DNA from: Methanobacteriota archaeon
GTDB lineage: Archaea; Thermoplasmatota; Poseidoniia; Poseidoniales; Poseidoniaceae
Direction of reading: 5' to 3'
Length of the DNA: 64,000 nt
Assembly (NCBI GenBank): GCA_002722135.1
Contig: PBKJ01000008.1
Coordinates: 30,290-94,289 of the forward strand
Part shown: one piece after another, positions 11,105 to 47,465 of the stretch
How positions within the stretch are numbered: the first letter of the stretch is position 1
Layout: each line of letters opens with the position of its first letter
Translations under genes and position numbers: made by a program
Notes under the pieces: model-generated
The model's database searches: none
What the model was told of the DNA's origin: nothing
Seen by the model: only the letters and a program-made list of their open reading frames with translations

Positions 11105-11219
11105 GTCTCCACTCGTCCCGCGACGCATGGTTTGCGCTCGTCAAGTGGCCTTTGAACGCTCGTGTTCACCCGGCCTGAATCAACCAATGCTTGATGAGGG
11201 TTCAGCAGAACCAGACCAC

Positions 11220-14200: not shown

Positions 14201-16805
14201 GCCGGATGCATGCCCCACCGTGCCCGGCACGTCCACGGAAGCCAACCGTCTGGGTTGCCCAGACGGTGACGGTGACGGTTGGGCCGACGTGGACGACGCT
14301 TTCCCCTTCGAATCCACGCAGTGGAACGACACGGACATGGACGGCTACGGGGACAACGCGATGGGGGCGAATCCCGACGCTTGTCCCTCCACGGCAGGCA
14401 CCTCAACCAACGACCGCCTTGGGTGCGCGGACAGCGACGGAGACGGCTATTCGGACCCAGACGCCGGATGGACCACCGCGCAAGGGGCGGACGAATGGCC
14501 CTCCGACGCCACCCAATGGGTGGACGCTGACGCCGACGGTTACGGGGACAATCCGGCCGGAACGATGGGTGACGCCTGTCCAGGCGTGACGGGCGGCTCG
14601 TCGGTGGATCGTTACGGTTGCCCAGACGCAGACGGCGACGGGTACTCGGACGCCGACGGCAGTTGGACCGTCCTCAACGGTGCCGACGCCTTCCCAAGCG
14701 ACGCTTCTCGCTGGGCGGACAGCGATGGCGACGGCTACGACGACACCATCGATGACGCCTGTCCCAACGCTGCGGGCACGTCTTCACTGGACCGCCAAGG
14801 GTGCCCCGACCGAGACAGCGACGGCTGGTCGGACCCGGACGGGGTGTGGACCGTCGCTGATGGCGCGGATGCCTTTGTGATGGACGGCACCCAGTGGGCC
14901 GACCAGGACGGTGACGGATACGGCGACAACAGCACCGGCACCTTGGCCGATGCCTGCCCGACACAGGCCGGCTCCTCGTGGCAAAACGGCACCCTTGGTT
15001 GCCCAGACTCGGACGGTGACGGTTGGGCCGACGCCGAAGATCAGGCTCCCAACGACGGCACGCAGTGGGTGGACACCGACGGAGACGGATACTTCGACAA
15101 CTCCGGGGGAACCATGCCAGATGCATGCCCGAACGTTCAGGGCAATTCCACGGCGGCCAACCGATACGGATGTCCGGACACCGACGGTGACGGCTGGGAC
15201 GACGCCATCGACGTGCTTCCGAACCTGCCCTCGCAGTGGGCTGATCAAGACGGTGACGGATACGGCGACAACGCCACGGGTCCGCAACATGATGCGTGTC
15301 CCGGAGAAGCCGGCACCTCTACCGTTGACCGCTTTGGCTGCCCCGACGCGGACAACGACGGTGTCTCAGACCTCGGTGACGCCTTCCCTGACGACCCGAG
15401 CCGCACTGCGGACGCTGACGGCGACGGCATCGACGACCCAAGCGATGGGTGCCCTGCCTTGGCGGGCACGTCAACCAGCCCCGTGACCGGATGCCCGGAC
15501 ACGGACGGAGACGGCGTGGCCGATGCTCAGCCCGGTGTCGACGGCATCGGTGAAGTGCGCATCGACCAAGGTGCCGATCCTTTCCCCAACGACCCGACAC
15601 AATCGGCCGATTCGGACGGCGACGGCTACGGCAACAACGCCTCGGGCACCGAAGGCGACGCCTGTCCAAGCGTGGCAGGGAATTCGACCTTCGACCGATT
15701 CGGCTGTCCTGATTCAGACGGTGACGGCGCCTCGGACGAAGGAGATGAATTCCCGAACGACCCCTCCCAGATCGGTGACACCGACAACGACGGCTACGGC
15801 GATCTCGCGTCGGGTGAACAACCCGATGCTTGTCCGGGCACAGCAGGAACGTCCACGCTCGACCGCTTCGGTTGTCCGGACAGCGACGGCGACGGCCAAA
15901 GCGACCTCAACGACCCTTGGCCAAGCGATGGAGCCGTGTGGTCGGATGGGGACGGTGACGGCTACGCTGACCAAGGTGGAACGTCGGTTTCAGACGATTG
16001 CCCGTCGGTGGCAGGAACCTCCACGCACTCGAGTGCACGGGGTTGTGAAGACCGGGATGAAGACGGCTGGTCGGATGACGAAGACGCCTTCCCAGACCTT
16101 TCCACACAACAGGTGGACAGCGACGGTGACGGATACGGTGACAACAACAGCATCGGTGCCGAGTCGCCGGACCATTGGCCGCAGGATGCCTCACGTAACG
16201 TGGCGGAAGCGACCCTCGAATGCCAGCTGGTCGATCCAGAGGTCGATTTGGCGGTGGGGCCAAAGTTCGCCTTCACGTGCACCGTCACCCACAGCATGGA
16301 CGTCCCCGTTACGGCCCGTGTCACGTGGGACGGCGGCTCGGACTTGTTCGGTGGCGCTCGCTCACAAACCGTCGTCATCGCACCCGAGGCGGACAACGCC
16401 ACGCTGTGGTTCCAAACCGAGGTGGCACGCATGGTGCCCATCGATTTGGTCATCACCGTGCTCGAACCAGGCGGCAGCGTCGCCATGGACGAAGTCACGC
16501 TGAAGGTGAACGTGGTCGACAGTCGCTTGTTCGAGGTGGACGAACCGACGCGAATGGAATGGACCGACATGTCATGGTGGGTGGACGACGAACGTGGACA
16601 GGTGGCCCTCGGCCAGGTGCTCTTGATCGTCCTCCTGCTCGGCTTGTTGGTGCAAGGCCGTCGGCGACGAACGCGGTGGGAAGAGGAACGAGAGGCCCTC
16701 GCCATGGCGCTGGTGGAACGTCGACGAACGGCACCACCGATGTCCTCGACACCGCCCCCACCGCAGGGCATCCCGAGCCTGCAGCAGCGACCGCCAAACC
16801 CCTGA
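11220..16805 (+). CDS. Secreted, membrane-anchored S8 subtilase (Kp43-like) with PPC-like domain and long thrombospondin type-3 repeat stalk
   Basis: Signal peptide; triad VADTGLD / GHGTHVAG / GGTSMATP; dozens of DxDGDG and DACP/GCPD repeats; C-terminal TM helix plus RRRR. Confidence 0.93.
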   Translation: MTRRAAHALFFSALMLIQITAPLAAGTPTNGPERVLDTDVDLTLLDAFGMQPSGDLAEGWFAPTEAGHVNLVHRTSALVAPSDWASWTGEQGLLDGWFVLGTTWPVPTPWEGELAEAGIACGSFLPPAAFHCEVNGLLPNDLEALGVTGMQRLAPSDRVREGLLESLYGQDEPVLASAMLAGERLPETLPHGVEVLSHSGRFADFLLSSEGLSTLAHEPALEWVEPRPWFVNFNDEARHIMNVTGVSSTSSMGATSTGWTGLDGSGVIVTVADTGLDNGVNNSNMHPDFADHIVDVVSFGVPSGTCSYYSLPTCNDGAADEWSGHGTHVAGSVLGDGTHSNGAIQGAAPEARLYFQAIETEATISGTTDGYLLGIPNNLYDLFEPAYDNGSRVHTNSWGSAVNGQYTTSSAQADASAQILWDMAILFAAGNEGTDGNSDGEVDLDSMSSPGTAKNVITVGATENDRSSVTSTWGGWWPGDYPTNPVKDDRHADNIDGMAAFSSRGPTDDSRLKPDVSAPGAWILSTKSRDTTSVGWGAYNTSYTYMGGTSMATPLTAGATALLIQHLDDNLGHSQPSSALVKAILAASSTDMAGQYSSSTNGAGETAPNDHEGWGRVDMWTAVNASFVDNESVSTNDERGWSFNVPNGADDFRVMLAWTDPASTPAASTNLVNDLDLAVKDPSGTWTNLSNDEDNLRGLTFTSPAQGTWEVHVIGTSVPQGGPQMFAMTLSENWTLTNLTQDADLDGVEDDDDDCPNDYGRSTVDRVGCPDTDNDGYSNQDANWTLANGADAFPAEPTQWADSDYDGYGDNAVGFQPDACTSVAGNSTQDRFGCIDSDGDGWSDPVGGYTVESGGDACDDVLGTSWRDRNGCTDEDGDGASDPDPTGASSSNGSAWGVTEGADAFLGDDTQWVDTDGDGYGDNPAPATDPDGCPTQFGDSTADRLGCPDTDGDTYSDPDSGFTAAHGADAFPNEASQWADQDGDGYGDNATGTQPDACPTVPGTSTEANRLGCPDGDGDGWADVDDAFPFESTQWNDTDMDGYGDNAMGANPDACPSTAGTSTNDRLGCADSDGDGYSDPDAGWTTAQGADEWPSDATQWVDADADGYGDNPAGTMGDACPGVTGGSSVDRYGCPDADGDGYSDADGSWTVLNGADAFPSDASRWADSDGDGYDDTIDDACPNAAGTSSLDRQGCPDRDSDGWSDPDGVWTVADGADAFVMDGTQWADQDGDGYGDNSTGTLADACPTQAGSSWQNGTLGCPDSDGDGWADAEDQAPNDGTQWVDTDGDGYFDNSGGTMPDACPNVQGNSTAANRYGCPDTDGDGWDDAIDVLPNLPSQWADQDGDGYGDNATGPQHDACPGEAGTSTVDRFGCPDADNDGVSDLGDAFPDDPSRTADADGDGIDDPSDGCPALAGTSTSPVTGCPDTDGDGVADAQPGVDGIGEVRIDQGADPFPNDPTQSADSDGDGYGNNASGTEGDACPSVAGNSTFDRFGCPDSDGDGASDEGDEFPNDPSQIGDTDNDGYGDLASGEQPDACPGTAGTSTLDRFGCPDSDGDGQSDLNDPWPSDGAVWSDGDGDGYADQGGTSVSDDCPSVAGTSTHSSARGCEDRDEDGWSDDEDAFPDLSTQQVDSDGDGYGDNNSIGAESPDHWPQDASRNVAEATLECQLVDPEVDLAVGPKFAFTCTVTHSMDVPVTARVTWDGGSDLFGGARSQTVVIAPEADNATLWFQTEVARMVPIDLVITVLEPGGSVAMDEVTLKVNVVDSRLFEVDEPTRMEWTDMSWWVDDERGQVALGQVLLIVLLLGLLVQGRRRRTRWEEEREALAMALVERRRTAPPMSSTPPPPQGIPSLQQRPPNP
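13440..16190 (+). repeat. Degenerate coding tandem repeats (TSP3-like Ca2+-binding units)
   Basis: Recurrent DAFP..QWxDxDGDGYGDN..DACP..G.S..DR.GCPDxDGDG units; bounds approximate. Confidence 0.85.
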
Positions 16806-16852
16806 AGCTGCGACGCGTCCGCCACCGCCTGAAGGTGAACACCACGCCGAGG

Positions 16853-16924
16853 TGCGGATAGCGGGAGTCGAACCCACGACATAAGGTTGGAAACCTCAGA
16901 TGATAACCACTTCACCATATCCGC
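16853..16924 (-). tRNA. tRNA-Gly (TCC)
   Basis: GCGGATA acceptor pairs with TATCCGC+A; anticodon arm TGAGG-TT-TCC-AA-CCTTA; T arm GTGGG-TTCGACT-CCCGC; no intron; CCA not fully encoded. Confidence 0.95.
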
Positions 16925-18446: not shown

Positions 18447-19232
18447 TCACGACATGTTGCGGGTGGTTTTGCACCCCACGCCCCAGTCTGGGTTGAGCTG
18501 CATGGCCGCTCGCGTCGCATCGAGCACGGTGTCCTCTGGCGTCTGAGGAGGAGCGCGGCCTGGGGCTAAGGCGACGCACATCAGCATCCCGTCCACCTCC
18601 ATCCAACTCAGGTGCACGACAGCGCCGTTGTGGACGTAGCGATCACCCTCCGCCACGATGTGACGTGGGTTCAGATGCATCCCCAAACCCAGCGCCTTCT
18701 GCACGGCTTCTTTCGTCACCCATGCACGGAGGGCTGACGCTGGCTTGCCCTGGAAGGAGGCACGCTCTTCGGCGGAGGCAAACATGTCCCATGCACCCTC
18801 GGCGATGGCTCGGTCAAGCGGTTCTGCATCGACCCCAATGCTCCATCCTGTATCGACCAAACCGACGACGGCTTGCCCAGCGCTGTGGCCAATGGACACA
18901 CCCGGCAAGGGAGCTTGCCGCCAGAGGCCAGGCCGCCAGCGGAGGTAGGGGGCACGGTGCTCATCGCGCACCACGTCCAGTTCGTCCGTGCGGCCAAGTG
19001 AGGCGCGCTCCTTCCACCACGCTTCGACGGCGTTGGCCAGCAAAAGGCGCCCACCAAGATGCTCCCTTCGACGCTTGTCGGTTTTGAACGTCAGCCACTC
19101 GGTCGAGTCCACCAAAGGCGGTAACGGGTCATCGACCCCTGGAAGGCGCTCGGGGAGCGAGGAGAGGTGGACCATGTGCTCTGGGGCATCGAAGCCGGAC
19201 CACTCCGGCACGACCCTTCGCATCTGCATCAC
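18447..19232 (-). CDS. 4'-phosphopantetheinyl transferase (Sfp-type)
   Basis: SIGHS, IGVDAE, WVTKEAVQKALG motifs; start overlaps the PKS stop. Confidence 0.9.
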   Translation of the reverse strand: MMQMRRVVPEWSGFDAPEHMVHLSSLPERLPGVDDPLPPLVDSTEWLTFKTDKRRREHLGGRLLLANAVEAWWKERASLGRTDELDVVRDEHRAPYLRWRPGLWRQAPLPGVSIGHSAGQAVVGLVDTGWSIGVDAEPLDRAIAEGAWDMFASAEERASFQGKPASALRAWVTKEAVQKALGLGMHLNPRHIVAEGDRYVHNGAVVHLSWMEVDGMLMCVALAPGRAPPQTPEDTVLDATRAAMQLNPDWGVGCKTTRNMS

Positions 19233-22200
19233 CGGTCGATGGACACCGCGAGGTCCTCTGGAACCGGAGCCATGCCCTTCAAGCGCAGCCCTCGGAGGGC
19301 CAACACCGGGTCGTCCTCCTCACCGAAGATGACCACATCGTGCACGGTGATGCCACCGTCTTCCTTTCCAGTGCACAGCGAGCGCATGCGGAGGGATTCA
19401 CCCTCATCGGGCACCCGAAGCACCGTGGACCATTCAATCCCGACCGGCAGGCTGCTGAGCCCTTCAGACTCCATCGCAACCAAGCCGGCGTTCTGGAAGC
19501 CGGCTTCGATGAGCATCGGCAAGGCCTCAAGCAGCACAGCCTCGCCTTCAGCCTCGATGGCGAACTGATCCTTCGCAGGCAGTTGGTGGCGCATCAGCGC
19601 CAATCCATCCACGCCGAGGTGTTCGTCTTGCTGTACACCTCGGAGCACGCCACCGTGGCTCTGGAAACGCGGACCGTGGAAGTATCGCAGGTAGATGAAG
19701 GACGGGTGATGCAGGAGATCGCCGGGCGCTGGGGCCAGACCCGTGTCGGGCATGTCCGCAAGTTCGTTGGCGAAAAAGGCACTCAGGTCCTCGGCTTGTT
19801 CGACAAGGCGCACAACGGCCGTGTGGTGTTCGCGTTCACCGAACACCTCGCCGCTCGATGACACAAGGTCGGACACGAGCCGACACTGGACGTCATGGGC
19901 CCCATCGCTTGCATCGCTCAGCGAGGCTTCAACACGCACCGTCATGCTCTCCCGCATGATCTTCACGGGCAAGCCAAAGGTCACGTCCCTGAATCCGGCC
20001 AAGGCCGTCCCGGGCTTGAGGAGGAGCGCGTTTTGCGCAAACATCTCGAGCGCCATCACTCCGGGGTGGTACGGCACGCCGTCGATGGCGTGATCCACAA
20101 GGAAGGGATGCATTTCAGTTGAAAGCGTAGTCTGCGTGATGATGCGGGCGTCCTCATCGAAGGCGACGACCTTGTCGATGAAGGGGAAGCGCTGAGGATC
20201 GGCGATCAGTCCCGCCATGCCCGGAGGCAGCTTGAGCGGCGCTTCGCGGAAGGCGCTGAAGGTGTCCATCGCACCGAGGCTGCCGCAACCGAGCACGCGG
20301 CGCTTTCCACCGGCCAGAGCCTCGTCCACAAACAGGTCCACGCCGACGTCGACCGGCAGCGTCTCGATGCCAGCAGCCTCAAACACCGCTTCAATGGAGC
20401 CTCGGGTCGCCATGCCGACATCGCGCCAACCGGTCCACCCGATGGCCACGGCGCGGCATGCACCGCTTGCCGTCAGGCGAGCCATTTCGGCATCCAGGAC
20501 TGAATTGGCCGCGGCGTAATCCGTTTGACCACCGTTTCCGAAGCGCCCGGCGACCGAGGTGAAGCAGGCTGCAAAGGCTGGATGACGCACACCAGAAGCC
20601 TCCACGGCGCCCATCAGCGCGGACCATCCGTCGACCTTGACCCGCACCACGCGATCGAAGGCTTCGTGGGTCTTGTCGCCCACAAGTTTGCTCTCCTCGA
20701 GCCCGGCACCATGGACGACGCCGGTGATGGCGTGGCCAAGGTTCGCGCCAAGTTTGGTCAGCGCTTTCCCGTCCATGACGTCCACGGCATGGTATTGGGC
20801 CAGATTGCCCGTGGCCTGAATGCTGGCGAGGGTCTGTTGTACGTCACGTGAACGCATCATGCGGTCCCAAGCACGGTTCCACTCCACCATGGTGACCTTA
20901 CCCGAAGAGGACGCCTCAATCATGCGCTCGCGGAGCGCCATCTTCTCAGATTCGAGGGTCGCATCGTCATGGTCGAGCCAAGCCTCGGTGACCTCCATCA
21001 GCGGGGTTCGACCCAGGAGATGGAAGGAAGCACCGGCATCCTTCGATGCAGCAGCCACGCCAATGACGGCGGCCGCCGTGACGCCAGATCCACCGCCAGA
21101 GACCAGCCACACGTCGGTTTCTTCCAGCGGAGTTCGCTCCTCAACCAAATCCTCGGCGAAACAGACCAGCGTCCAGCGCTCGCCAGCACGGTCGAGGCCA
21201 ATTTCGACTTCGCCTCCAACGTTGAGCAAGTCGTCCACGAGGCGCTCTGCCGTGGCCTCGGCATCCATCAACATGTCCGGATGCACGTCATAGGCACGGC
21301 AGCGCAAGGCAGGCCGCTCATGGGCGTAGGATTTGGTCACGCCCGCAGCCGCGGCTTGAAGCGCGTTGAAGCGGTCCCCGCGGTTGCCGTGGCGCCCGTC
21401 CATGGCGCTCACCGAAGCCACGATGCCAGACTCGAGGGCTCCGAGTTTCGAATCGAGGGATTTCAAGAGTCCGAACCACGCTTGACCGGACAACACCACC
21501 TGCTGGCTTGGTCCGGATTCTTCAGACCACGCCATGCTGGCCAGCCGCAACGGAGCCAAGTGAATCATGCCCGCCAGTGGGCCTTCTCCGATGGCGTCCA
21601 CAAAGGCGTCCATTTGCTCGGAGGAGGCTGGATCGACCCGGTGGACGATGCGTTCACCCTCCTCTTGGATGCGATGTGATTTCGCTCCGGGCTCGAGCCC
21701 AATGTGCACGACATCGAAGCCCTTCTCGGAAAGGACGTGGGCGACCGCGGCGGAAACGCCCCAATCGTCCTCCGTGACGAGAATACGGCCGGTGAGGCTC
21801 AGAGGAGCCTCTTGACCTGAGCAGGGTTCAACCTCGACCTGCCAGCGCCTGTTGCCAACCGCCACCATCGAGGAAGGAGCATCGACGGCTGATGGCGCCT
21901 CGGCGGGTGCCGTCGACGTTGGGGCAGTCGTGCTTGCTTCGCCCCCACCGGAGGAATACTTGGCGACGTAGGCCACGAAATGATTGAGCGTTGGGTGGTC
22001 GGACAGCAGGAAATCTTCGTCCACTGGGAGGTCGAAGATGGCGCGAACGTCGGCCATGATCTCGGCCTGCTTGACCGTGTCAATGCCCAATTCGCCTTCG
22101 AGGTCCTGGTCGAGTTCGATGAAATCCTCTGGGTACCCGGTGTGCTTGACCACGACCTCGACCAAACGTGCTGCAATGCTCCCGTCGTCGCCGGATGGGG

Positions 22201-25200
22201 GTGCAGGAGTTGGGGCAGGGGCAGCCGCAGGAGCGGTTTCTGGCGCAGGTGCTGCAGCCGGCGCAGGGCCAGGTGCCGGCGCTGGAGGTGCAGACCCGCT
22301 TTCTCCGCCCGTCATCCGCTGGATGTAACCCACCATGTGGTTGAGCGTCGGGCGGTCTGAGAGCAGGAAGTCCTCGTCAACGGGCAGCGAGAAGCGCGCT
22401 CGGATGTCGGCCATGATCTCGGCCTGCTTGACCGTGTCAATGCCCAATTCGCCTTCGAGGTCCTGGTCCATTTCGATGAAGTCGGCCGGGTAGCCGGTGT
22501 GCTCCACCACGACCGCCACCACGGTGTCCACGAGGTCACCTGCATCGGCCGTGGGAACGGCAGCGGCTGGTGCTGGGGTTGGGGAAGGTGCCGAAGTCGC
22601 CGCAGGTGCAGCCTCGACCGTTGCCGCAGGAGCGGGCTCTGGAGCCGGAGCAGGACGGTCCACAGCCGCTTCGGCTGCTGGGGCCGGAGCGCCGCCTTGC
22701 ATGCGCGTCAGGTACGCCAGCATGTGGTTGAGCGTCGGATGGTCGGAGAGCACGAAGTCCTCATCAACGGGCAGCGAGAACCGGTCCCGAAGCGCCGCCA
22801 TGATTTCGGCTTGCTTGACCGTGTCAATGCCAAGTTCACCCTCGAGGTCCTGGTCCATTTCGATGAACTCTGCAGGGTAGCCTGTGTGTTCGACGACCAC
22901 TTCAATCATGGCAGCAGCGACCTCTTCGTCGCTTGCGTTCATGGTAACCTGGGCTGTCGGGGCGGCGGTGGCTGCAGGCTCGGGGGCGGCTTGCGGTGCA
23001 GGCTCAGGAGCAGGTGGGGCTTCCGGTTCCTCGACCACGCCTTCGAAGGGAGCGCTTGGACCCCATGCCTCGCCTTGCACCCCGCCATGGAGGTTGCTTT
23101 CCCCGTCGACATACGCGACCAAGGTGTTGTTCTTGATGCGCAGCACGACGTCGTTCGTGCCTGCAAGACGCCGGTTCCATGCCAGCACGGCCCGACCGTT
23201 CACGCGCTCACCTTCGACCGGCCAGCGTCGCACCAGCGAGAGGGCAATTTGTGAACCAAATCCAGCACCGAAGCGGATGCCGTACTCGATGCCGTCAACG
23301 TCTCCACCCTTGCTGAGGTTGAGGTTGCCCAGCTCTGGATCCACTTCTTTGTGGTTGGCAATGGGTGGGAAGCGGCGGTGATGGAGGCCATGAATCATGC
23401 TCGCATCTTCAATGCCGACGCCCATCGGATGCCCCGTGAAGCCCTTGGTGTTGGCAATCAGGATCTTGTCCGTGCTTTCGCCAAAGGTCGTTCTGAGCGC
23501 TTTGACCTCCGACTGAGCCGAACCACCGCGTGCGGGTGTGTAGGTTTCATGCGAGAAGAAGACCGTGTTCGGTGCCATCGTATGCCGATCAAGACCCCAC
23601 GTGCGCTCCATCTGACCGACGAATCCATCGACGGTTTGCGCCACGTGTTCAACGTCGAGACGGGTCCCGTGGAAGGCGGAATTCGCCATTCGGGTCCCGA
23701 GCAATTCAGCATAGGGCTGAACGCCACGCTCCGCCGCTTCGGCGTTTCGCTCCACCACGAAGGCGGCGGCTCCCATGCCGAGGATCAAGCCGTTGCGTCG
23801 CCGGTCGAACGGCAGGGCTGCTTCTTCGATGACGTTGCTTGAGGATGCGGCCCCAGAGGCGGCAAAACCAGCTCCGATCCACGACCAGAGTTCTGGACTG
23901 GTCACGTTGTCTGAAGAGATGATGACCACGCGGTCCGCGCGGTCGTTGGCCAACCAATCCTCTGCGATGCTGAACGCCGCCGTTGCGGAGGCACAGGCGA
24001 CGTTGATGGTGGAGTTGGGCCCTCGGATACCGGTATGCTGGGCGAACTGGGCATGGCCCATGTTGAGCACTTGGAAGAGGAAACGACGGTCGAAGCGACC
24101 GTCGGCATCTGCACCGTTGTTTCGTGCATGTCCGAACGAGGCCGTGGTGCCTGGGAAACATGAGGCAAACACCACACCGGTCCGCTCACGCTGGTGTTGT
24201 GGAACTTGCCAGCCACGGATGAGCCGAAGACCACCTTTGCCCACCTGCTCCTCGGGCGTGAGCGGGATGGCGGCGTCCCGCAAAGCGAGCAAGCCGGACG
24301 CCACGGCCAGTTGCGTGGTGATGTCCCATGCCAGCACGGCCTTCGGATCCACGCCGAATTCCTCAGCGAGATCGAAGGCGTGAGCCACACCGGCCAGTTG
24401 AGGGATGTCGCCGAAGGTTTCTGCGGGAGACATGTCCACTGAACCGTCACGGCCCTTGACGAGCCGCACGATGTTCCGATCGAGCAGCGCCTGCTTGTAG
24501 GCGTCCGACACTTCTTCGATGCAGGTCTCGCCTCGCACCAAGCGCTCAAACACGTCCTCATCGAAGACGCGTTCTCCGCCGGGGAGGCCGAGGGACACAC
24601 CGGTGATCACGTAGGGGTTGGCTCTCCGGTCGGCCATCGCATCGTGCACGACGGTTGCACCCGTGACCGCCTCCACTGGGCGACGGGTTGCGGGCGCAGC
24701 GGGGCTCCAGCTCGACGGCGGAGCGCGGACCGCTCGGACCAATTCGGCCGGCGTCCGTGCGGACGCGATGTCCACTTCGCCGTCCAGCGGGGCCTCTGCC
24801 CGAAGGCGTTGCACGACGGAAGCCACCTTGGCATCGTCCAGACCGAGTCCTGTCCGTAGGTCCACGGCTCCGCGGCAGAAGCGGGCAGGGTAGCCGCACA
24901 CCGCAGCAAGACGATCACCGACGTAGGCGGCAATGGCCTCAGCAGGGTCGGAAGGCGTCGCGGCGGGAGCAACGACGGCCTGCGCGGCGACGGGCGTACC
25001 GCCGCTGGAAGGCAACGGACGAGCGCGGGTGCGCAGGTCCTCGTGTTCCTGTGACGAGCGAGCGGGTTGCAAGGGCGACGAGGACCACGCTTCCAACGGT
25101 CCGGCGCGGAAGGCTTCGGTGAGCGCCGGGCTTGCGCCGTCAGGCATCGTGGCGACACGCCCGGCCAGAGCCAACATGCCCAATGCGGAAAGGAAGCTGG

Positions 25201-28054
25201 CGATGCCGCCTTGCTTCGGATGGTTGGTCATCACCGCAACGTGCGGCTTGCCTTCGAGGATTTGCGTGGCGAACACCGTCAGCGCTCGCTTTGGACCGAC
25301 CTCGACGAAGGCACCCGCACCGGCAGCCGCCATGGTCTCGATTTGAGCGGTCCACTCGACCGATGAGGCCATTTGTGGTGCGAGCTTTTCCAGCACGGCC
25401 GCCTTGGCGTTGTCGCCTTCCATCGCGTAGAAGGTCCCGTCAACGTTGGCCGTGATGGGGATGGTGGGCCACTGGAGATCGAGTTCCTCGAGGAAGGCGC
25501 GGAGCGGTGCGTTCGCAGGTGCGACGATTTTGGAATGGAACGCGTGGGAGGTTTGCAGAACGGTGCACGGCATGCTTTCTGCTTCAAACGCGGCCATAGC
25601 GGCCTTCACCGGCTCGGTTTCGCCGGCGATGACGGTCATCTTCGGCGAGTTCTTGTTGGCGGAGATGACGTAACCGTCCGTGGCCTCAAGGATGCGCTCA
25701 ACGTCAGCGAGCGGTGCGCTGACCGAAGCCATCAGGCCCTGATCGTCAATTTCAACCGAGCCCATTTCCGTTCCACGGGCAGCGGCCGCGCGAAGGGCGC
25801 TGTCCATGTCCATGATGCCGGCCGACATCAGGGCCGCGTATTCGCCAAGCGAATGGCCTGCGACCATGTCGGGTTTGAGGCCGTGATCGTTGAGGGCACG
25901 CTCGATGGCCAGATCGGCCGTCAACATGGCAGGTTGGGTGTATTCGGTCCGCTTGAGCTTCGCTTCAGCGTCCTGGATTTCTTCCTTGGACAAGTTGCTT
26001 CGCAGCACAAAGGAAGAGAGCGTCTCGCCGTCCAGCACATCAACCATGGTCTCGTCAGCCAAACGCCAGACGTCCTGAACCGCCGTGAAGCGCTGCCAGA
26101 GGTCGTGGGTCATCCCAACGTATTGGCTGCCTTGACCGGGGTACATGTGGGCGACTTTGGCTTGGGGGGGCATGGCGGGTTGGTCGGTGATCATCACGCC
26201 TTGGGCCCCAAGGAAGCCCCAACGGGCGGGATCGGACAGGGATGAAGCGGCGAGGCCCTTTCGCTTTTCGAATTCGGCCCACGACGTGGCCACGACCGCG
26301 AGCCGAACGGCCGCGTTCACGTCGAAACCTGTGGACCACGTCGGGAAGACGGCGGACAGCCGATGCCCCCGAGGGTCCTCGTCGAAGGTCGGACCGTCGA
26401 CGCTGAGTGCCGCGAGGCGAGCCGCGACGGCTTCGACGCTGTCGCCAGAGAGCAGCAGGACGCCACCTTCGACGGACTTGAGGGCCGCGTGGCCCAGCGA
26501 AGGGGTGGCGGTGGCGTCGAGGATGGACGCCGCTTCGGGCGCCGAAGGCGCGCCAGCGTAGGCGTCCCAACGGGACGACCACGTCTCGCCCATGGCCGCG
26601 TGAACCTCGGGGTCGTAGGCCTCGAGGGCGACGTGGAAGTTGGTGCCGCCAAAACCGAAGGCGCTGACGCCAGCACGGCGCGGATGGCCCGCAGGTTGAG
26701 GCCAAGCCATGGGCTCCGTGGGCACAAAGAAGGGATTGGTCGACCAGTCCACCGTTGGGTTCGGTGTTTCAAAGCCCGCACTCGGCGGAATGGTCGCATG
26801 GTGCAGGGCCATCGTGACTTTGAGCAGCCCCGCCATGCCGGCGGCTGCTTTGAGGTGGCCAATTTGGCTCTTGATGGAGCCCACAGCAACGTTGTCGCCG
26901 GCCTCGATGTCCGTCCACAAGGTGCCGAGGGTGGACAATTCAGTGGCGTCGCCGACCTTGGTGGACGTCCCGTGGGCCTCGACCAATTCCACAGAGGACG
27001 GGGCATAACCCGCCTGGTTGTAGGCACGAGCAATCGCCTGAATCTGGCCGCGCTGCGACGGGGCAGTGATGCCCTTGCCACGGCCATCGGATGAACCGCC
27101 GATGCCACGGATGACCGCGAAGACTTCGTCGCCGTCTCGGACCGCATCGCTCAGGCGCTTGAGCACCATGGCTCCTGCACCCTCGCCCATGACGAAGCCG
27201 TTGGCACGCGCATCGAACGGCGTGGAGTGGCTCGGAGACAGCGCCCCAATGGCGCTGAACTTGGCGTAGGTGGCAGGGTCCATCGTCCGGTCCGAAGCAC
27301 CGCAGATCATCGCGTCGACTTGGCGCGCGTGCAGCAAACGGCAGGCGTCGAGCAAGGCCGCAAGCGAGGACGCACATGCGGCGTCCATGGCATGGTTGGG
27401 CCCCTGCAGATCGAGCAGGTTGGCGACGCGGCCTGACACGACGTTGGCAAGCTCACCCGGCATGGTGTCCTCGGTGATTTTCGGAGCGCCTTCGACCATG
27501 GCGTCCACGAAAGCGTCGCTCGCGGAGGCGGCAAGGCCTGCTTCGATGGCCAAGGCTCGGTTGTGTTCTGCCCAGACCCGCTGGTTGGATTCGTTGCGGT
27601 TTTCACCGCCGAGGGCGTTGGCAAAGACCACGCCAACTCGGCTGCGGTCGAGCGGGCGGCCTTCGTCGCCGTAACCTGCGTGCTCCAAGGCTGACGCAGC
27701 CACTTCGACCGCCCACAGCTGACAAGGATCGATCTGAGCCAGGGTTCCCGGCGGTTGCCGCCATCGGCGCCAATCGAATTCGAAGCCTTCGACGAAGGCG
27801 CCGATTTTCGCATAGGTGCGGTTTTGCTCAACGTTTCCAGGTGAACCCTCGGCCCAGAAGTGTTCGATTGGGCCCGGCCATCGGCCCTCGGGCAGGTCAC
27901 GGATGCTGACGTGTGCGTCGATGATGTTCTGCCAAAACGTCGCGGCATCCGCTGCATCGGGCATCAGGGCCGAGCAACCGATGATGGCGATGGGTTCGAA
28001 GGGGCCCTGGTCGGTCCCGCCGACCTCTTTTCCGTCCGCTGTGGTGATCGTCAT
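19229..28054 (-). CDS. Type I polyketide/fatty-acid megasynthase (KS-AT-degenerate ACP-KS-ACP-ACP-ACP-KR-DH), PfaA/HglE-like
   Basis: KS1 DAACASS/EAHGTST/KSQIGH; AT PGQGSQ/GHSLGE/HAFHS; KS2 NVACAS/SHETYT/TKGFTGH; 3x LGIDTVKQAEI; KR VSGGGSG/VHGAG/YAAAN; DH HAIDGVPYHP/FHGPRFQ. Confidence 0.93.
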   Translation of the reverse strand: MTITTADGKEVGGTDQGPFEPIAIIGCSALMPDAADAATFWQNIIDAHVSIRDLPEGRWPGPIEHFWAEGSPGNVEQNRTYAKIGAFVEGFEFDWRRWRQPPGTLAQIDPCQLWAVEVAASALEHAGYGDEGRPLDRSRVGVVFANALGGENRNESNQRVWAEHNRALAIEAGLAASASDAFVDAMVEGAPKITEDTMPGELANVVSGRVANLLDLQGPNHAMDAACASSLAALLDACRLLHARQVDAMICGASDRTMDPATYAKFSAIGALSPSHSTPFDARANGFVMGEGAGAMVLKRLSDAVRDGDEVFAVIRGIGGSSDGRGKGITAPSQRGQIQAIARAYNQAGYAPSSVELVEAHGTSTKVGDATELSTLGTLWTDIEAGDNVAVGSIKSQIGHLKAAAGMAGLLKVTMALHHATIPPSAGFETPNPTVDWSTNPFFVPTEPMAWPQPAGHPRRAGVSAFGFGGTNFHVALEAYDPEVHAAMGETWSSRWDAYAGAPSAPEAASILDATATPSLGHAALKSVEGGVLLLSGDSVEAVAARLAALSVDGPTFDEDPRGHRLSAVFPTWSTGFDVNAAVRLAVVATSWAEFEKRKGLAASSLSDPARWGFLGAQGVMITDQPAMPPQAKVAHMYPGQGSQYVGMTHDLWQRFTAVQDVWRLADETMVDVLDGETLSSFVLRSNLSKEEIQDAEAKLKRTEYTQPAMLTADLAIERALNDHGLKPDMVAGHSLGEYAALMSAGIMDMDSALRAAAARGTEMGSVEIDDQGLMASVSAPLADVERILEATDGYVISANKNSPKMTVIAGETEPVKAAMAAFEAESMPCTVLQTSHAFHSKIVAPANAPLRAFLEELDLQWPTIPITANVDGTFYAMEGDNAKAAVLEKLAPQMASSVEWTAQIETMAAAGAGAFVEVGPKRALTVFATQILEGKPHVAVMTNHPKQGGIASFLSALGMLALAGRVATMPDGASPALTEAFRAGPLEAWSSSPLQPARSSQEHEDLRTRARPLPSSGGTPVAAQAVVAPAATPSDPAEAIAAYVGDRLAAVCGYPARFCRGAVDLRTGLGLDDAKVASVVQRLRAEAPLDGEVDIASARTPAELVRAVRAPPSSWSPAAPATRRPVEAVTGATVVHDAMADRRANPYVITGVSLGLPGGERVFDEDVFERLVRGETCIEEVSDAYKQALLDRNIVRLVKGRDGSVDMSPAETFGDIPQLAGVAHAFDLAEEFGVDPKAVLAWDITTQLAVASGLLALRDAAIPLTPEEQVGKGGLRLIRGWQVPQHQRERTGVVFASCFPGTTASFGHARNNGADADGRFDRRFLFQVLNMGHAQFAQHTGIRGPNSTINVACASATAAFSIAEDWLANDRADRVVIISSDNVTSPELWSWIGAGFAASGAASSSNVIEEAALPFDRRRNGLILGMGAAAFVVERNAEAAERGVQPYAELLGTRMANSAFHGTRLDVEHVAQTVDGFVGQMERTWGLDRHTMAPNTVFFSHETYTPARGGSAQSEVKALRTTFGESTDKILIANTKGFTGHPMGVGIEDASMIHGLHHRRFPPIANHKEVDPELGNLNLSKGGDVDGIEYGIRFGAGFGSQIALSLVRRWPVEGERVNGRAVLAWNRRLAGTNDVVLRIKNNTLVAYVDGESNLHGGVQGEAWGPSAPFEGVVEEPEAPPAPEPAPQAAPEPAATAAPTAQVTMNASDEEVAAAMIEVVVEHTGYPAEFIEMDQDLEGELGIDTVKQAEIMAALRDRFSLPVDEDFVLSDHPTLNHMLAYLTRMQGGAPAPAAEAAVDRPAPAPEPAPAATVEAAPAATSAPSPTPAPAAAVPTADAGDLVDTVVAVVVEHTGYPADFIEMDQDLEGELGIDTVKQAEIMADIRARFSLPVDEDFLLSDRPTLNHMVGYIQRMTGGESGSAPPAPAPGPAPAAAPAPETAPAAAPAPTPAPPSGDDGSIAARLVEVVVKHTGYPEDFIELDQDLEGELGIDTVKQAEIMADVRAIFDLPVDEDFLLSDHPTLNHFVAYVAKYSSGGGEASTTAPTSTAPAEAPSAVDAPSSMVAVGNRRWQVEVEPCSGQEAPLSLTGRILVTEDDWGVSAAVAHVLSEKGFDVVHIGLEPGAKSHRIQEEGERIVHRVDPASSEQMDAFVDAIGEGPLAGMIHLAPLRLASMAWSEESGPSQQVVLSGQAWFGLLKSLDSKLGALESGIVASVSAMDGRHGNRGDRFNALQAAAAGVTKSYAHERPALRCRAYDVHPDMLMDAEATAERLVDDLLNVGGEVEIGLDRAGERWTLVCFAEDLVEERTPLEETDVWLVSGGGSGVTAAAVIGVAAASKDAGASFHLLGRTPLMEVTEAWLDHDDATLESEKMALRERMIEASSSGKVTMVEWNRAWDRMMRSRDVQQTLASIQATGNLAQYHAVDVMDGKALTKLGANLGHAITGVVHGAGLEESKLVGDKTHEAFDRVVRVKVDGWSALMGAVEASGVRHPAFAACFTSVAGRFGNGGQTDYAAANSVLDAEMARLTASGACRAVAIGWTGWRDVGMATRGSIEAVFEAAGIETLPVDVGVDLFVDEALAGGKRRVLGCGSLGAMDTFSAFREAPLKLPPGMAGLIADPQRFPFIDKVVAFDEDARIITQTTLSTEMHPFLVDHAIDGVPYHPGVMALEMFAQNALLLKPGTALAGFRDVTFGLPVKIMRESMTVRVEASLSDASDGAHDVQCRLVSDLVSSSGEVFGEREHHTAVVRLVEQAEDLSAFFANELADMPDTGLAPAPGDLLHHPSFIYLRYFHGPRFQSHGGVLRGVQQDEHLGVDGLALMRHQLPAKDQFAIEAEGEAVLLEALPMLIEAGFQNAGLVAMESEGLSSLPVGIEWSTVLRVPDEGESLRMRSLCTGKEDGGITVHDVVIFGEEDDPVLALRGLRLKGMAPVPEDLAVSIDR
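22049..22468 (-). repeat. 63-nt identical direct repeat in ACP2 and ACP3 (22049-22111 and 22406-22468); near-identical third copy near 22800-22860
   Basis: gtcggccatgatctcggcctgcttgaccgtgtcaatgcccaattcgccttcgaggtcctggtc read twice. Confidence 0.9.
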
Positions 28055-28058
28055 GCCC

Positions 28059-28065
28059 TCACCTC
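28059..28065 (-). promoter_or_regulatory. Shine-Dalgarno GAGGTGA between fabI stop and PKS start
   Basis: Minus strand ...GAGTGAGGTGAGGGCATG. Confidence 0.7.
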
Positions 28066-28855
28066 ACTCCATGATGGTCTCCGGCACCATCGTGATCGAA
28101 TAGCCTGCATCAACGTGAATCACCTGCCCGGTGACCCCTGCCGAAAGCGGACTTGCCAACCACAAGGTGGTCCCTGCCACGTCCGATTGCGTGACGTTTC
28201 TTCGAAGCGGCGCGTTGGACGCCACGTGATTCAGGATGTTGTCGAACCCGGGGATGCCCGAGGCAGCGATCGTTCGGATTGGACCTGAGGAAATCGCGTT
28301 CACGCGGTGGCCCTCCGGCCCAAGGTGACAGGCCAATTCCCGCGTCCAGCACTCAAGGGCGGCCTTGGCCATGCTCATGATGCCGTAGGACGGCACATAT
28401 CGGGTGGAGGCAGCATAGGTCAGGGTGATCGTCGATGAACCCTCGGACAGGTATGGGAGTGCGTGCTTGAGGCACCGCTGCAGGCTGTTGGCGGAGATGG
28501 TCATCGCGGTGTTGATGTCGGCATCCTCGACGAAGAGGATCGGGCGATCGAAGCAGGTTCGCGGCGCGAAGCCGATGGCGTGGACCAAGATGTCGGCCTT
28601 CTTGCCCGGGTGTTCTGCGGCGAAGGCGTCGAAGAATTCCTTGGTGGAGGCATCTTCAGCGACATCCAAGGGGTAGAAGCCACCGATGGAAGGAAGTTGG
28701 TCCTTCAGTTTGAAGATCCGGCTCATGAAGCGCTTCTGATAGCCGAGGTACAGCGTGCAGCCTGCCGCGGCCAGTTGTTGGCAAATGGCCCACGCGATGG
28801 AATCCTCGCTGGCCACACCGAAGACGAAGGCTGTCTTTCCCTTGAGGTCCAGCAT
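28064..28855 (-). CDS. fabI: Enoyl-ACP reductase (FabI-type SDR)
   Basis: GVASEDSIAWAI, LVHAIGFAP, Y-x6-K (YGIMSMAK), RVNAISSGPIRT, VTGQVIHVDAG. Confidence 0.92.
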   Translation of the reverse strand: MLDLKGKTAFVFGVASEDSIAWAICQQLAAAGCTLYLGYQKRFMSRIFKLKDQLPSIGGFYPLDVAEDASTKEFFDAFAAEHPGKKADILVHAIGFAPRTCFDRPILFVEDADINTAMTISANSLQRCLKHALPYLSEGSSTITLTYAASTRYVPSYGIMSMAKAALECWTRELACHLGPEGHRVNAISSGPIRTIAASGIPGFDNILNHVASNAPLRRNVTQSDVAGTTLWLASPLSAGVTGQVIHVDAGYSITMVPETIME

Positions 28856-28956: not shown

Positions 28957-30081
28957 TCACAGTCCGTCAAAATCAAACTCGTCAGGGCCGTCAAGATCGT
29001 CAAACATGCCGTCAAACTCGTCGACTGGGGCGGCGGCGGCAACGGGAGCAGCAGCAACGGGCACGTCCGGCTCGTCGAGTTCGGTCACTTCCTCGAGTTC
29101 AGGGCCACTGGAACGGCGCACCAAACGGCCGACCACGAAGATGAGCAGGAAGAACACGACCACGCCCCCGCCAATGGCGGCATAGAGCTGAATCTGGTCT
29201 TGACTGAGTTCCTCAAGGCCACCTCCCACCAACGCGGCGTTGGTGGTGGCGGGCTGAACGACCACGGTGACGGTGGATTGCATCGGCTCGGCCGTGGCAT
29301 CGTTGGTGCTCGTCGCTTCAAAGACCACTTGGACGCGGACCTCTTCGGTCACCTCAGACGGCGTGCGCAGCACAATGGTGCGCTCGGCTGAGGTCCCCTC
29401 GACCATGACGGTCTCGGCAACAAAACTGCCCTCGGGGAAGCTGAAACCGGCGCCTTCCAGTTCGGCAAGGTTGGCGATGTTCACCTCGATTTTGTCTTCG
29501 GCGTTGCCGTCGTTGCCCATGGTGAAGCCGATGCTGACCTCCTCGCTGACTTCGAGGTTCCGGGTGGAACGGTCGGTGAGGGTCAAGTCAACCTGGCCGA
29601 ACGTTGCAATCGTCAACTCACCGGAGTAGGTCGCAGATTGGTTCAGCTGGTCCACTGGGAGCACCATCACCGAGGTAATGGAAGCGGTGATGTCGAAGTC
29701 AAGGGAGAGGTCGGCCTCGATCCTCGGCGAGCCAGAGAAGGTCGCCTCAAACTCCTCTTCTGCACCTGCGGCGAGGGTGAATTCGTCCTCCGAAAGCGAC
29801 ATGTCCACACGAGGGTCATCGTCCTGCCACTCGTAATCCACCGAGATGGTGGATTCCAGTTGGCCTGAATTTGACACGGTGCACGTGATGACCACATCCT
29901 CGTTTTCTGAGGGCGCGACGTTGAGCTCTGGGTCGCCGTCACAGTCGATTTGGACGCCGATGCCGATTTGGGCCTGGGCGCTCGGGGCCGCTACGAGCAG
30001 CAGGGAAGCCAGCAGCAACCCAACGGTCCACACAGCTCGTGAGGGGCGGCTCATTGGTTGCGGGTGATGCGACTCCGCCAT
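28957..30081 (-). CDS. Secreted Ig-like protein with C-terminal TM anchor and acidic tail (choice-of-anchor T-like)
   Basis: Signal peptide, acidic beta-rich repeats (TVSNSG, NDGNAED), TM helix followed by RR. Confidence 0.65.
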   Translation of the reverse strand: MAESHHPQPMSRPSRAVWTVGLLLASLLLVAAPSAQAQIGIGVQIDCDGDPELNVAPSENEDVVITCTVSNSGQLESTISVDYEWQDDDPRVDMSLSEDEFTLAAGAEEEFEATFSGSPRIEADLSLDFDITASITSVMVLPVDQLNQSATYSGELTIATFGQVDLTLTDRSTRNLEVSEEVSIGFTMGNDGNAEDKIEVNIANLAELEGAGFSFPEGSFVAETVMVEGTSAERTIVLRTPSEVTEEVRVQVVFEATSTNDATAEPMQSTVTVVVQPATTNAALVGGGLEELSQDQIQLYAAIGGGVVVFFLLIFVVGRLVRRSSGPELEEVTELDEPDVPVAAAPVAAAAPVDEFDGMFDDLDGPDEFDFDGL

Positions 30082-30989: not shown

Positions 30990-31529
30990 TCAGGCCTCGC
31001 TCACGAAGGCTTGACGGCTCTCGATTTGCGTTCGCCAGTGGACGGCGGCCATCGCCACCATGTTCGGATGACGAGCTTCGGTGGCCACGGCCTTACCGTT
31101 GCTCCACAGGTGAATGGTCAGGCCGTGTCGCTCGTCGTTGATGCACACGCAGCCAAGCCGTTCGTCCACTTCGCCTTGCCCTGCCCCGAGATCGCCAGCA
31201 AGGCGCTCGATGTGCACGGCTCGACGGTATTGGAAGGAGGCGATGATTGGGCCAAATTCCATGCTCAGTGAGGCGTCACTTGCACCAAGCCGAATCAGGA
31301 TTTCTTTGGCCGCCGCTTGAGCCGCTTCCACACGGTGCGTGCCGTGAACGATGAGACGTCCCTCCGCATCAACGATGACCGTCGCCGACGGGCGGGTCAG
31401 GGCCACGACCACAAGCTCGCCTGCTCGGACACCGCCGAGGTCAGCCTCGACTCGGGCCTGGTCAACAGGCGTCGCAGGAATGAACCGAATGAGGCGGTTT
31501 TCCACACGAACGTCGATTCCTTCGCTCAT
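30990..31529 (-). CDS. Highly diverged TATA-box-binding protein (TBP)-fold protein
   Basis: 179 aa, two-repeat pattern: VRVEN...PSATVIVDAEGRLIVHGT..EAAQAA and IIASF...TIHLWSNGKAVATEAR. Confidence 0.6.
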   Translation of the reverse strand: MSEGIDVRVENRLIRFIPATPVDQARVEADLGGVRAGELVVVALTRPSATVIVDAEGRLIVHGTHRVEAAQAAAKEILIRLGASDASLSMEFGPIIASFQYRRAVHIERLAGDLGAGQGEVDERLGCVCINDERHGLTIHLWSNGKAVATEARHPNMVAMAAVHWRTQIESRQAFVSEA

Positions 31530-31530
31530 G

Positions 31531-32319
31531 TTAGGCCTCCTCAAACGACGCGACGAGGTCGTCATATGAAACGATGACCTCGGCCGGAGGGCCCTCATTG
31601 AGCGCCTTCACCAGGGCGTCCACCCTCGGTTCGACCAGCACGAGAAGGAGCGTGGAACCCCCCGCCTTCCGCACCTCGGCCAAGGCACCTCGGGCCCGAG
31701 CGGCAAAGCGACGGTCGCGAGAAAGACGGGTGGTCACCGTCAGGTCTGCGTCCCACATCTGCCACCACGCGCGCGTGGAGACCATGACTTCGGCCATGCC
31801 GTCCTCTGGACCGGACGTGACCCCTGATGCAGCGTCCGACAGTGCCTTTCGCCACGCACGACGGCTGCGCACCCTTCGAATGAGCCGGCGCCAATCCGTC
31901 CGTTCCTTCGCCTCAAGCGAGAGGTGATCGGACCACGCCTCGTCGTCCAGGTTCGGCTCGAGGAAATACACTGATCGGTCAGAACGCTGTGCCTCGCGGA
32001 ACAAGCGAAGCGGCTCAGGGTCAGGAAACCGACCGGTCAGGGGACCGTCGATGCTGGTGAGGGCATCGAGAAGATGCGCTTCATGCCCGATGCCAAATCG
32101 AGCCGCTTCGAGGTTGACGCCGGGAGAGGCTCGCTCGTCCTCCTCCTCTTGCAACCACGCCTCCGGCGCTCCAGCATCGTCGAGCAGCGCAAGACCGTCC
32201 CACGCCTTCGGGTTTGGCCAGAGGCTGCGCGGCAGGACCACCGTGGGGAAGGTCCCGTGCAGGAGGATCGTCCCTCCGTCAGGATCTTCCCACGAAGCCG
32301 TGGACCAGCCACGGGTCAT
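31531..32319 (-). CDS. Hypothetical protein
   Basis: 262-aa ORF tightly packed between neighbours on the same strand. Confidence 0.65.
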   Translation of the reverse strand: MTRGWSTASWEDPDGGTILLHGTFPTVVLPRSLWPNPKAWDGLALLDDAGAPEAWLQEEEDERASPGVNLEAARFGIGHEAHLLDALTSIDGPLTGRFPDPEPLRLFREAQRSDRSVYFLEPNLDDEAWSDHLSLEAKERTDWRRLIRRVRSRRAWRKALSDAASGVTSGPEDGMAEVMVSTRAWWQMWDADLTVTTRLSRDRRFAARARGALAEVRKAGGSTLLLVLVEPRVDALVKALNEGPPAEVIVSYDDLVASFEEA

Positions 32320-47325: not shown

Positions 47326-47465
47326 AGGAGAAGGACGCAACGATTTGCCGCCGCCGCGGCAGGGCGTCGCTTGTACCGGCTGAGGTACCAACACGGGTCA
47401 CTGCGCTCGATTCGCCCAGAAGCGCCCAACGGAGCGTTGAAGTCCCGTCACGGCGGGCCACCACC

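Follow-up and report, generated by a model that had tools for sequence, protein, structure and literature searches.

A window of 64,000 nucleotides, the whole stretch of DNA analyzed here, from an archaeon of the family Poseidoniaceae (contig PBKJ01000008.1 of assembly GCA_002722135.1, positions 30,290 to 94,289) contains three adjacent genes on its reverse strand, encoding a FabI-like enoyl reductase, an iterative type I synthase, and an Sfp-type 4'-phosphopantetheinyl transferase (PPTase). These genes make up a single compact module that is conserved and inherited together in the order Poseidoniales. By sequence, the synthase is a member of the "Type R secondary lipid synthase" family, known from numerous bacterial phyla and, with a patchy distribution, from Thermoplasmatota. 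Our overall reading, to which we assign a probability of roughly 70%, is that this is a native Type R module making an accessory acyl lipid, with the chain held on acyl carrier protein (ACP) domains that bear threonine instead of serine and with FabI acting in trans. As far as the literature searched goes, what is new is that an archaeal gene encodes a Type R synthase, that it forms a strict three-gene module with FabI, that this is the sole carrier-protein system of the cell, and that threonine is the hallmark of the carriers of the family.

The junctions of the module were read directly. The fabI-like gene (28064..28855, reverse strand, as are all features of the module) encodes 263 amino acids from ATG 28855; its frame is open back to GTG 28960, and ATG 28855, which is preceded by GGAGG, is the likeliest start. 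The fabI stop codon, TGA, is followed by a spacer of 9 nucleotides, GGTGAGGGC (28055..28063), bearing a Shine-Dalgarno-like GGTGA, and then by the ATG of the synthase gene (19229..28054; 2941 amino acids). The end of the synthase gene, ...CGG TGA, overlaps the GTGATG start region of the PPTase gene (18447..19232), which encodes 261 amino acids from GTG 19232 or starts at ATG 19229. An earlier annotation made from the letters of this DNA (the sequence-only reading) had chosen the same fabI start and had described three co-oriented genes joined by a 9-nucleotide Shine-Dalgarno gap and a stop/start overlap, an arrangement that the junction reads bear out.

The synthase has the order ketoacyl synthase-acyltransferase-ketoacyl synthase-three ACPs-ketoreductase-dehydratase (KS-AT-KS-ACP3-KR-DH). 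Domains were called with Pfam on the whole protein, the second KS emerging when pieces were scanned alone, and catalytic residues were read after aligning 17 full-length relatives from archaea and bacteria. KS1 (amino acids 20 to 483; 26606..27997) matches ketoacyl-synt (20 to 428), Ketoacyl-synt_C, and KAsynt_C_assoc and carries C227/H361/H400. The AT (amino acids 637 to 959; 25178..26146; Acyl_transf_1, 7.2e-35) has S735 in GHSLGE, R760, and H840 in the HAFH motif, which had been pointed out in the sequence-only reading and which we take to mark malonyl specificity; its match to TIGR00128 FabD (2e-58) lies under the cut-off of that model. KS2 (amino acids ~1149 to 1601; 23252..24610), absent from the sequence-only reading, is divergent and FabF-like (ketoacyl-synt, 3.2e-17; TIGR03150 fabF, 1e-39), and by its residues, C1354/H1502/H1542, it is catalytically intact. 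Three PP-binding stretches, matching the carrier-domain family PF00550 at 85.8 bits, form ACP1 (22709..22906), ACP2 (22322..22525), and ACP3 (21965..22168). The catalytic part of the KR (amino acids 2401 to 2545; 20420..20854; Pfam KR, 1.8e-23) carries K2473/S2500/Y2513/N2517, and the polyketide synthase (PKS)-type DH (amino acids 2624 to 2926; 19277..20185) has a PKS_DH_N match (2624 to 2723; 1.1e-09), a weak PS-DH match, and the motif H2655-x3-G-x4-P2664. The checked residues of KS1, AT, KS2, KR, and DH were invariant in 17/17 relatives, except N2517, which is Asn in 16/17, and every checked catalytic residue of the window's synthase is intact. The Pfam domains and intact residues thus agree with the earlier proposal that the three genes jointly hold a full reductive elongation cycle plus priming. 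The synthase was found to contain no thioesterase or reductase release domain. An ACP-like relic between the AT and KS2 (amino acids ~1050 to 1100) was considered and rejected, as the region gave only a sub-threshold match to DUF7433 and the family consensus is unconserved there.

The assignment of the synthase to the PfaA/HglE type (KS-AT-ACPn-KR) in the sequence-only reading did not hold. The best NCBIfam model, TIGR02813 PfaA, scores 867.8 bits, below its cut-off of 1010.1, and the protein has a second active KS. With PfaA and HglE systems it shares the KS-AT-tandem ACP-KR(-DH) order, a dedicated PPTase, and an iterative single module; it differs from PfaA, and presumably from HglE, in the extra KS between AT and ACPs and in the Thr that replaces Ser in the ACPs. 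PfaA systems differ further from the archaeal module, which has a FabI-type reductase beside the synthase and no FabA-type DH (PF07977) in the source genome. In Type R systems as described by Shulse and Allen (2011; PMC3098273), one pfaA homologue with the order KS-MAT-CLF-ACP(3-6)-KR is followed by a PPTase gene. In the text of that paper available to us, Type R is reported from Koribacter, Solibacter, Elusimicrobium, and Roseiflexus, with an acetyl-CoA carboxylase (ACC) gene between synthase and PPTase in Koribacter; it is classed as "secondary" lipid synthesis with an unknown product; and bacteria only are listed, the words "archaea" and "threonine" occurring zero times. Both the domain order KS-MAT-second KS-like-tandem ACPs-KR and the PPTase gene directly downstream are found in the archaeal module. 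Set against the Type R scheme in that text, the archaeal second condensing domain keeps Cys-His-His and is not a Cys-less CLF, a mismatch that probably reflects the 2011 label and not a real difference, and the archaeal synthase has a C-terminal PKS-type DH. Furthermore, FabI lies upstream of the archaeal synthase, whereas most bacterial clusters have an acyl-CoA-dehydrogenase (ACAD)-family gene there, often with electron transfer flavoprotein (ETF) genes, and the archaeal cluster has no ACC gene, which some bacterial clusters hold inside.

The family is large. At E<=1e-30, a whole-library HMMER search with KS2 plus ACP1 returned representatives of 997 clusters, and many of these proteins are ~2900 to 3300 amino acids long with KS2 in the same place. 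Among the 600 pattern matches listed for species-representative genomes, at least 586 were confirmed relatives. Eighty loci kept from this listing came from Acidobacteriota, Chloroflexota, Myxococcota, Actinomycetota, Elusimicrobiota, Gemmatimonadota, Desulfobacterota, Rhodothermales, and several Thermoplasmatota. An Elusimicrobium minutum metagenome-assembled genome (MAG), Ca. Korobacteraceae, other Acidobacteriota, and Chloroflexota fall into one family with the archaeal clade, in a tree confined to the loci collected here.

Distribution was surveyed in 151 genomes of the order (Poseidoniales, or Marine Group II, by homologue names), covering 22 genera, with families here called f1, f2, and f3. 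The synthase was found in 104/151 genomes, 103 of them with strong matches (f1, 74/74; f2, 2/2; f3, 27/74, including one weak match at 1.5e-28), the PPTase in 103/151, and a FabI orthologue (E<=1e-70) in 102/151; all three occur in the same 16 of the 22 genera. In the one f1 genome that lacks FabI, the synthase sits at a contig start. The order fabI-synthase-PPTase is collinear in 16/16 loci from the three families, with fabI directly upstream and the PPTase gene directly downstream of the synthase in every one, and a TatD gene lies upstream in 15/16; these loci include single-contig genomes. Identity to the window synthase is 90 to 98% within the genus, ~59 to 68% within the family, and 44 to 60% in the other family, and the close homologues that bear names are annotated as MAG proteins of Candidatus Poseidoniales, Poseidoniaceae, or Poseidonia. 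In 6/22 sampled genera no module was found, and 47/74 f3 genomes gave no synthase match; the six module-less genera have small genomes of 1.2 to 1.7 Mb.

A FastTree phylogeny of KS1-AT plus KS2 was computed with 83 rows (19 of 102 candidate loci were left out as incomplete). All 23 Poseidoniales rows fall into one clade with support of 100, split inside into f1 versus f2 plus f3. Given this tree, which is unrooted, we infer that loss of the module in the six genera is the simpler reading. In a wider Thermoplasmatota sample, a relative (E<=1e-100) was present in 33/121 genomes, comprising 15/18 Poseidoniales and 18/103 others. The general statement in the sequence-only reading that archaea lack ACP systems therefore stands only with a qualification for Thermoplasmatota. 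In the tree, the remaining Thermoplasmatota rows fall outside the Poseidoniales clade, and several exchanges between bacteria and Thermoplasmatota, in either direction, are therefore likely.

Distribution, collinearity, and tree uphold the earlier view of the trio as a real archaeal operon-like module that is vertically inherited, and they bear on whether it could be an assembly chimera, a contaminant of the bin, or a gene set acquired from bacteria very recently. Most of the family is bacterial, and the nearest large clade to Poseidoniales in the unrooted tree is bacterial, as such an origin would have it. However, the same trio in the same order stands beside TatD in nearly all sampled loci of three families, identity falls with taxonomic distance, and the Poseidoniales clade is monophyletic. 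Composition is likewise ordinary: the GC content of the module is 0.638 versus 0.618, and the module correlates with the remainder of the window in tetranucleotide usage at 0.970, inside the span of other 10.4-kb segments (0.923 to 0.982). A chimera or recent import is excluded.

The attachment site of the carrier domains, absent from the sequence-only reading, sets the family apart. All three window ACPs read ...GELGIDTVKQAEIM..., and Thr1745 (in the context GIDTVKQA), Thr1874, and Thr1993, encoded by ACG at 22820-22822, 22433-22435, and 22076-22078, fall in an alignment on the DS-motif Ser of solved ACPs, where Ser would be expected. To our knowledge, every carrier protein described so far uses Ser, and we know of no O-(4'-phosphopantetheinyl)-threonine protein modification. 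The literature searched yielded no description of threonine at the phosphopantetheine site or of the motif GIDTVKQ. The family motif, LGIDTVKQAE, has Thr at the position of the phosphopantetheine serine. Among the best 150 of the 997 family representatives, 132 have Thr only, 3 Ser only, 1 both, and 14 no motif, counts that are not pattern-based, though the query held one ACP. The Thr codons vary by lineage (ACG, ACC, ACT, and ACA). In five bacterial Type R genomes, the 18 resolved carrier domains outside Type R all have Ser (4 more were unresolvable), while 8/8 Type R windows have Thr; each of these genomes has 1 to 4 PPTase matches, one of them within ~10 kb of the Type R ACPs in 3/5.

Within Poseidoniales, Thr was found in 12/12 f1 loci of one set, and a second set of 16 loci comprised 12 with Thr and 4 with Ser (GIDSIKQAEIM). 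The Ser-type orthologues, 4 of 28 loci in total, belong to genera g13, g16, and g20, use TCN codons, and form one well-supported clade nested among Thr-type rows. By the tree, the change from Thr to Ser is a single one within the order, hitting every ACP copy. The simplest reading of these sequences is that Thr would be the attachment site, loaded by the linked PPTase.

The PPTase matches PF01648 (ACPS) at 37.1 bits (cut-off, 25). Across 27 sequences, R54, H116, D135, E137, W171, E175, and K179 are invariant in the family, at the places of the motifs KRRxEH, SxSHS, GxDxE, and WxxKEAxxK. Like Sfp/PfaE-type PPTases, the protein is ~260 amino acids long, matches PF01648, and has invariant residues at the motif positions; it differs from them in its high divergence (its match to solved PptT, at E=0.13, is a remote one), in having Thr-bearing domains as its sole possible PF00550 clients, and in being fused to the synthase in some relatives. 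Beyond Poseidoniales, a PPTase was present in 51/80 loci, many of which are incomplete. Genome-wide searches were made in the source genome, which is 92.5% complete. PF00550 matches occur three times, all inside the synthase; PF01648 matches once, in the neighboring PPTase; other KS matches are three weak ones in ORFs of ~390 to 430 amino acids; and FabA/FabZ (PF07977) was not found in this 92.5% complete genome. The module is thus the only carrier-protein system of the source genome.

The unusual residue raises the possibility that the Thr-ACPs are not phosphopantetheinylated, being inactive relics or holding the chain by other chemistry, and that the PPTase has a different client. This would fit the use of Ser in all carriers known to be described and the weak Pfam score and remote match to solved PPTases. 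We nevertheless regard it as improbable. Thr and its motif stay the same from phylum to phylum although the codons vary synonymously, the ACP-column consensus shows no other conserved hydroxyl residue, and one clade swapped Thr for Ser in all ACP copies. Furthermore, the sole PPTase has no other PF00550 client in the source genome, its motif residues are invariant, and it shares its distribution with the synthase, to which it is fused in some lineages. PPTase residues separating Thr-type from Ser-type hosts were also sought, and nothing convincing was obtained; the four Ser-type sequences are one clade, so that any such residue is confounded with descent. A C-terminal PPTase tail (...DATRAAMQ..DWGVGCKTTR; window positions 18447-18530) is common to several f1 genera, including those of loci L023, L025, L026, and L028, and is missing in L027 (genus g6), f2, f3, and most bacterial members.

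The fabI product matches Pfam adh_short_C2 (PF13561) over its full length at 237 bits (2.9e-70; cut-off, 27), contains a Y-x6-K stretch, and has its best NCBIfam matches to FabI models throughout. It resembles bacterial type II FabI in this full-length match to the short-chain dehydrogenase/reductase family of enoyl-ACP reductases and differs in its presumed work with a type I megasynthase, in a genome without the other components of a fatty acid synthase (FAS) of type II. Outside Poseidoniales the upstream position is held by other genes. Sequence of 2.2 kb or more upstream of the synthase is available for 68 of the 80 loci from outside Poseidoniales, and in 52 of these an ACAD-family gene lies directly upstream on the same strand; in a reading of the table, EtfB/EtfA genes, often with an Fe-S/CCG oxidoreductase gene, accompany it in ~20 loci. 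FabI adjoins the synthase in 1/80 of these loci, which groups inside f1 of Poseidoniales. A single-chain biotin carboxylase-BCCP-carboxyltransferase gene of ~1900 amino acids stands between synthase and PPTase in at least 27/80 loci (37 with looser clustering), and a WS/DGAT wax-ester/triacylglycerol synthase gene is nearby in 7/80. Fusions also occur: a Desulfobacterota protein has the order NMO-KS-AT-KS-ACP-KR-DH-PPTase, with a FabK/PfaD-type reductase (NMO) at its N-terminus, and in a Thermoplasmatales protein the PPTase is fused C-terminally to the synthase; these forms sit at L055:5529-16823 and L040:7008-18155. A larger conserved bacterial block (Fe-S/CCG oxidoreductase, EtfB, EtfA, ACAD-family gene, synthase, single-chain acetyl-CoA-carboxylase-type gene, PPTase) is seen within 8 kb on either side of the synthase in many loci, including L031, L036, L037, L043, L046, L048, L061, L068, and L105, and looks like a self-contained alternative fatty acid factory. 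From these partners we infer that the family needs a reductase, supplied in non-homologous forms, and that Poseidoniales uses FabI. This use fits a host without type II FAS; the source genome has no FabA/FabZ match and only weak other KS matches.

These partners also bear on what the module makes. The product could be a specialized, partly reduced polyketide-like lipid (hydroxy, enoyl, or very-long-chain, such as the aglycone of a glycolipid or the precursor of a wax or hydrocarbon), with FabI serving some cycles only or another pathway. A pair of active KS domains, an arrangement found in systems where each KS handles a different range of chain lengths, a DH of PKS type and not FabA type, and the lack of a release domain are compatible with such a product, as are the presence of WS/DGAT in some bacterial loci, the dispensability of the module across genera, and the unknown product of Type R in the available text of PMC3098273. 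On the other hand, FabI is strictly linked to the synthase in position and distribution, reductase-type partners hold the same position in other lineages, and genes for tailoring enzymes, such as a glycosyltransferase or a P450, are not conserved next to the archaeal module. We therefore rate a polyketide-like product as rather unlikely. By analogy with the bacterial clusters, the ACC-type and WS/DGAT genes found there would speak for a fatty-acyl product, and a reduced acyl chain is the product that we derive from the domains.

The lipid genes of the source genome were examined alongside. A GpsA-type glycerol-3-phosphate (G3P) dehydrogenase (124 bits), a PlsC-type acyltransferase (84.9 bits), and geranylgeranylglyceryl phosphate synthase (GGGPS) are present; neither a match to the glycerol-1-phosphate (G1P)-dehydrogenase family nor PlsY was found in the 92.5% complete genome. 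This gene set fits the published picture of Marine Group II (PMC6461757 and PMC6962369, as far as their available text goes). Across the order, the PlsC-type acyltransferase occurs in 148/151 genomes and a second acyltransferase-like gene (531 amino acids) in 145/151, both in 22/22 genera. An off-loading acyltransferase co-varying with the module was sought among these two and rejected, since both occur in all 22 genera, synthase or not. With both acyltransferases in 22/22 genera and the module in 16/22, the module is therefore dispensable. PF01210 matches with identical scores (29.5 bits, 364-amino-acid frames) were seen at G000:C8:99932-100255 and G000:C19:2130-2453 of the source genome (G000); the assembly may contain a duplication here, or one of the two contig ends may be redundant.

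The sequence-only reading had inferred straight-chain acyl or alkyl lipids made de novo, possibly for hybrid membranes; in its stronger form, the module would be the chief de novo supplier of such chains for a hybrid (ester/ether, G3P-based) core membrane. Mixed or hybrid membranes have already been proposed for Marine Group II (PMC6962369, PMC6461757, and PMC7852524, in the text available), and the module is the only ACP-dependent system of a genome that pairs GpsA-type, PlsC-type, and GGGPS genes with no G1P-dehydrogenase match. Yet the trio was not found in six of the genera that all keep a PlsC-type gene, PlsY was not found, and the bacterial relatives coexist with Ser-type carriers and further PPTases; the available text of the 2011 paper classes the family as "secondary" lipid synthesis. 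The module looks accessory, and its uneven distribution argues against a core membrane role, which we rate as rather unlikely. What stands of the earlier interpretation is the native module and the full cycle; its PfaA/HglE type does not.

In the mechanism that we favor, a Type R module for an accessory lipid, the PPTase would load 4'-phosphopantetheine onto the ACP threonines and the AT would load malonyl units, for which three PF01039 acyl-CoA carboxyltransferase genes in the source genome could supply malonyl-CoA. KS1 and KS2 would elongate iteratively, with KR and DH acting in cis and FabI serving in trans as the enoyl reductase, to give a largely saturated acyl chain on the ACPs. Because the synthase has no thioesterase or reductase release domain, the chain would probably be handed directly to an acyltransferase or other off-loading enzyme encoded elsewhere. 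The product would be an accessory ("secondary") lipid or an extra or optional de novo fatty-acyl supply, and not an indispensable core of the membrane. A broader proposal is that Type R synthases, bacterial and archaeal alike, hold the chain on O-(4'-phosphopantetheinyl)-threonine set by a dedicated PPTase lineage and, with the recruited FabI, form the only de novo fatty-acyl factory of the cell in Poseidoniales; we advance this whole only tentatively, at somewhat less than even odds.

Several points weigh against the favored reading. The chemistry is read from domains alone. FabI scores below every NCBIfam FabI cut-off (best, NF005615, with 227.1 bits versus 391), and the ACAD-family neighbors in bacteria could work oxidatively, which would weaken the argument for a reductase slot. 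A Ser-to-Thr change in the ACP of Escherichia coli is reported to block modification by AcpS, and loading of Thr would therefore be unprecedented. The 80 non-Poseidoniales loci were fetched partly with the pattern LGIDTVKQ and are biased to the Thr type. No acyltransferase co-varies with the module, itself not found in 6/22 genera, which makes any link to membrane lipids tentative. Metatranscriptome-library contigs (Logan, three studies; 95 to 100% alike) lend weak support: each of the three genes is partly covered, and two contigs span the synthase-PPTase junction. These RNA contigs show presence, neither strand, level, nor co-transcription; gaps in their coverage carry no meaning, and DNA carry-over is possible.

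Beside the archaeal module lie genes for TatD, for a choice-of-anchor-T surface protein, and for an M28 peptidase. An ORF of 374 amino acids at 28957-30081 was considered as a fourth member and rejected; it encodes the choice-of-anchor-T surface protein and occurs in f1 loci only. A tRNA-Gly(TCC) gene (16851-16924, reverse strand) lies between subtilase and M28 peptidase genes, ~1.5 kb past the PPTase end of the module. On either side of the region is a very large ORF (32328-38174, reverse; 11064-16805, forward); one encodes a 1948-amino-acid protein without any Pfam match and the other a 1913-amino-acid S8 subtilase with a PPC domain. Elsewhere in the window, cdc6, named in the sequence-only reading, was recovered as an Orc1/Cdc6 match at 60736-62073 (1.3e-147), and a TBP match at 30990-31598 is weak and below cut-off (28.6 bits for the whole protein, with no single stretch passing). 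A CrtI-family phytoene desaturase gene lies at 48409-49977 (reverse; 6.8e-186), close to genes for an enoyl-CoA hydratase (46459-47325) and an aldolase (47322-48389).

In surface oceans, few archaea are as abundant as those of Marine Group II, which have long served as a case in the debate on the "lipid divide." The main texts of Rinke 2019 and Tully 2019 contain "polyketide" and "acyl carrier" zero times, and clusters of the T1PKS and HglE-KS types are listed for Ca. Poseidoniaceae in a paper that was retracted. Among papers on PKS or ACP in Marine Group II or Poseidoniales, none on the fabI-synthase-PPTase operon was found in the literature searched, which covered texts without supplements. 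A different archaeal route to fatty acids is the ACP-independent FAS of Sulfolobus acidocaldarius (bioRxiv 10.1101/2024.07.05.601840), which, in the text available to us, works with thiolase/DUF35, SDR, and MaoC proteins on CoA esters without ACP or PPTase, whereas the module described here is an ACP- and PPTase-dependent megasynthase of bacterial type.

Collectively, these findings make the module a compact three-gene candidate for fatty-acyl synthesis in Marine Group II. Its size makes the fatty-acyl question testable by heterologous expression, with bearing on both the lipid divide and carrier-protein chemistry. The variable upstream partner suggests how a bacterial secondary-lipid synthase became self-sufficient in a host without type II FAS. 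If the joint proposal on threonine is true, Poseidoniales would offer a natural archaeon with bacterial-type acyl chains to combine with a G3P backbone and an isoprenoid pathway. For the family, Thr at the attachment site explains why motif tools that require Ser would misjudge these carrier domains, and its presence throughout a widespread family predicts either a novel post-translational modification or a novel mode of acyl-chain carriage.

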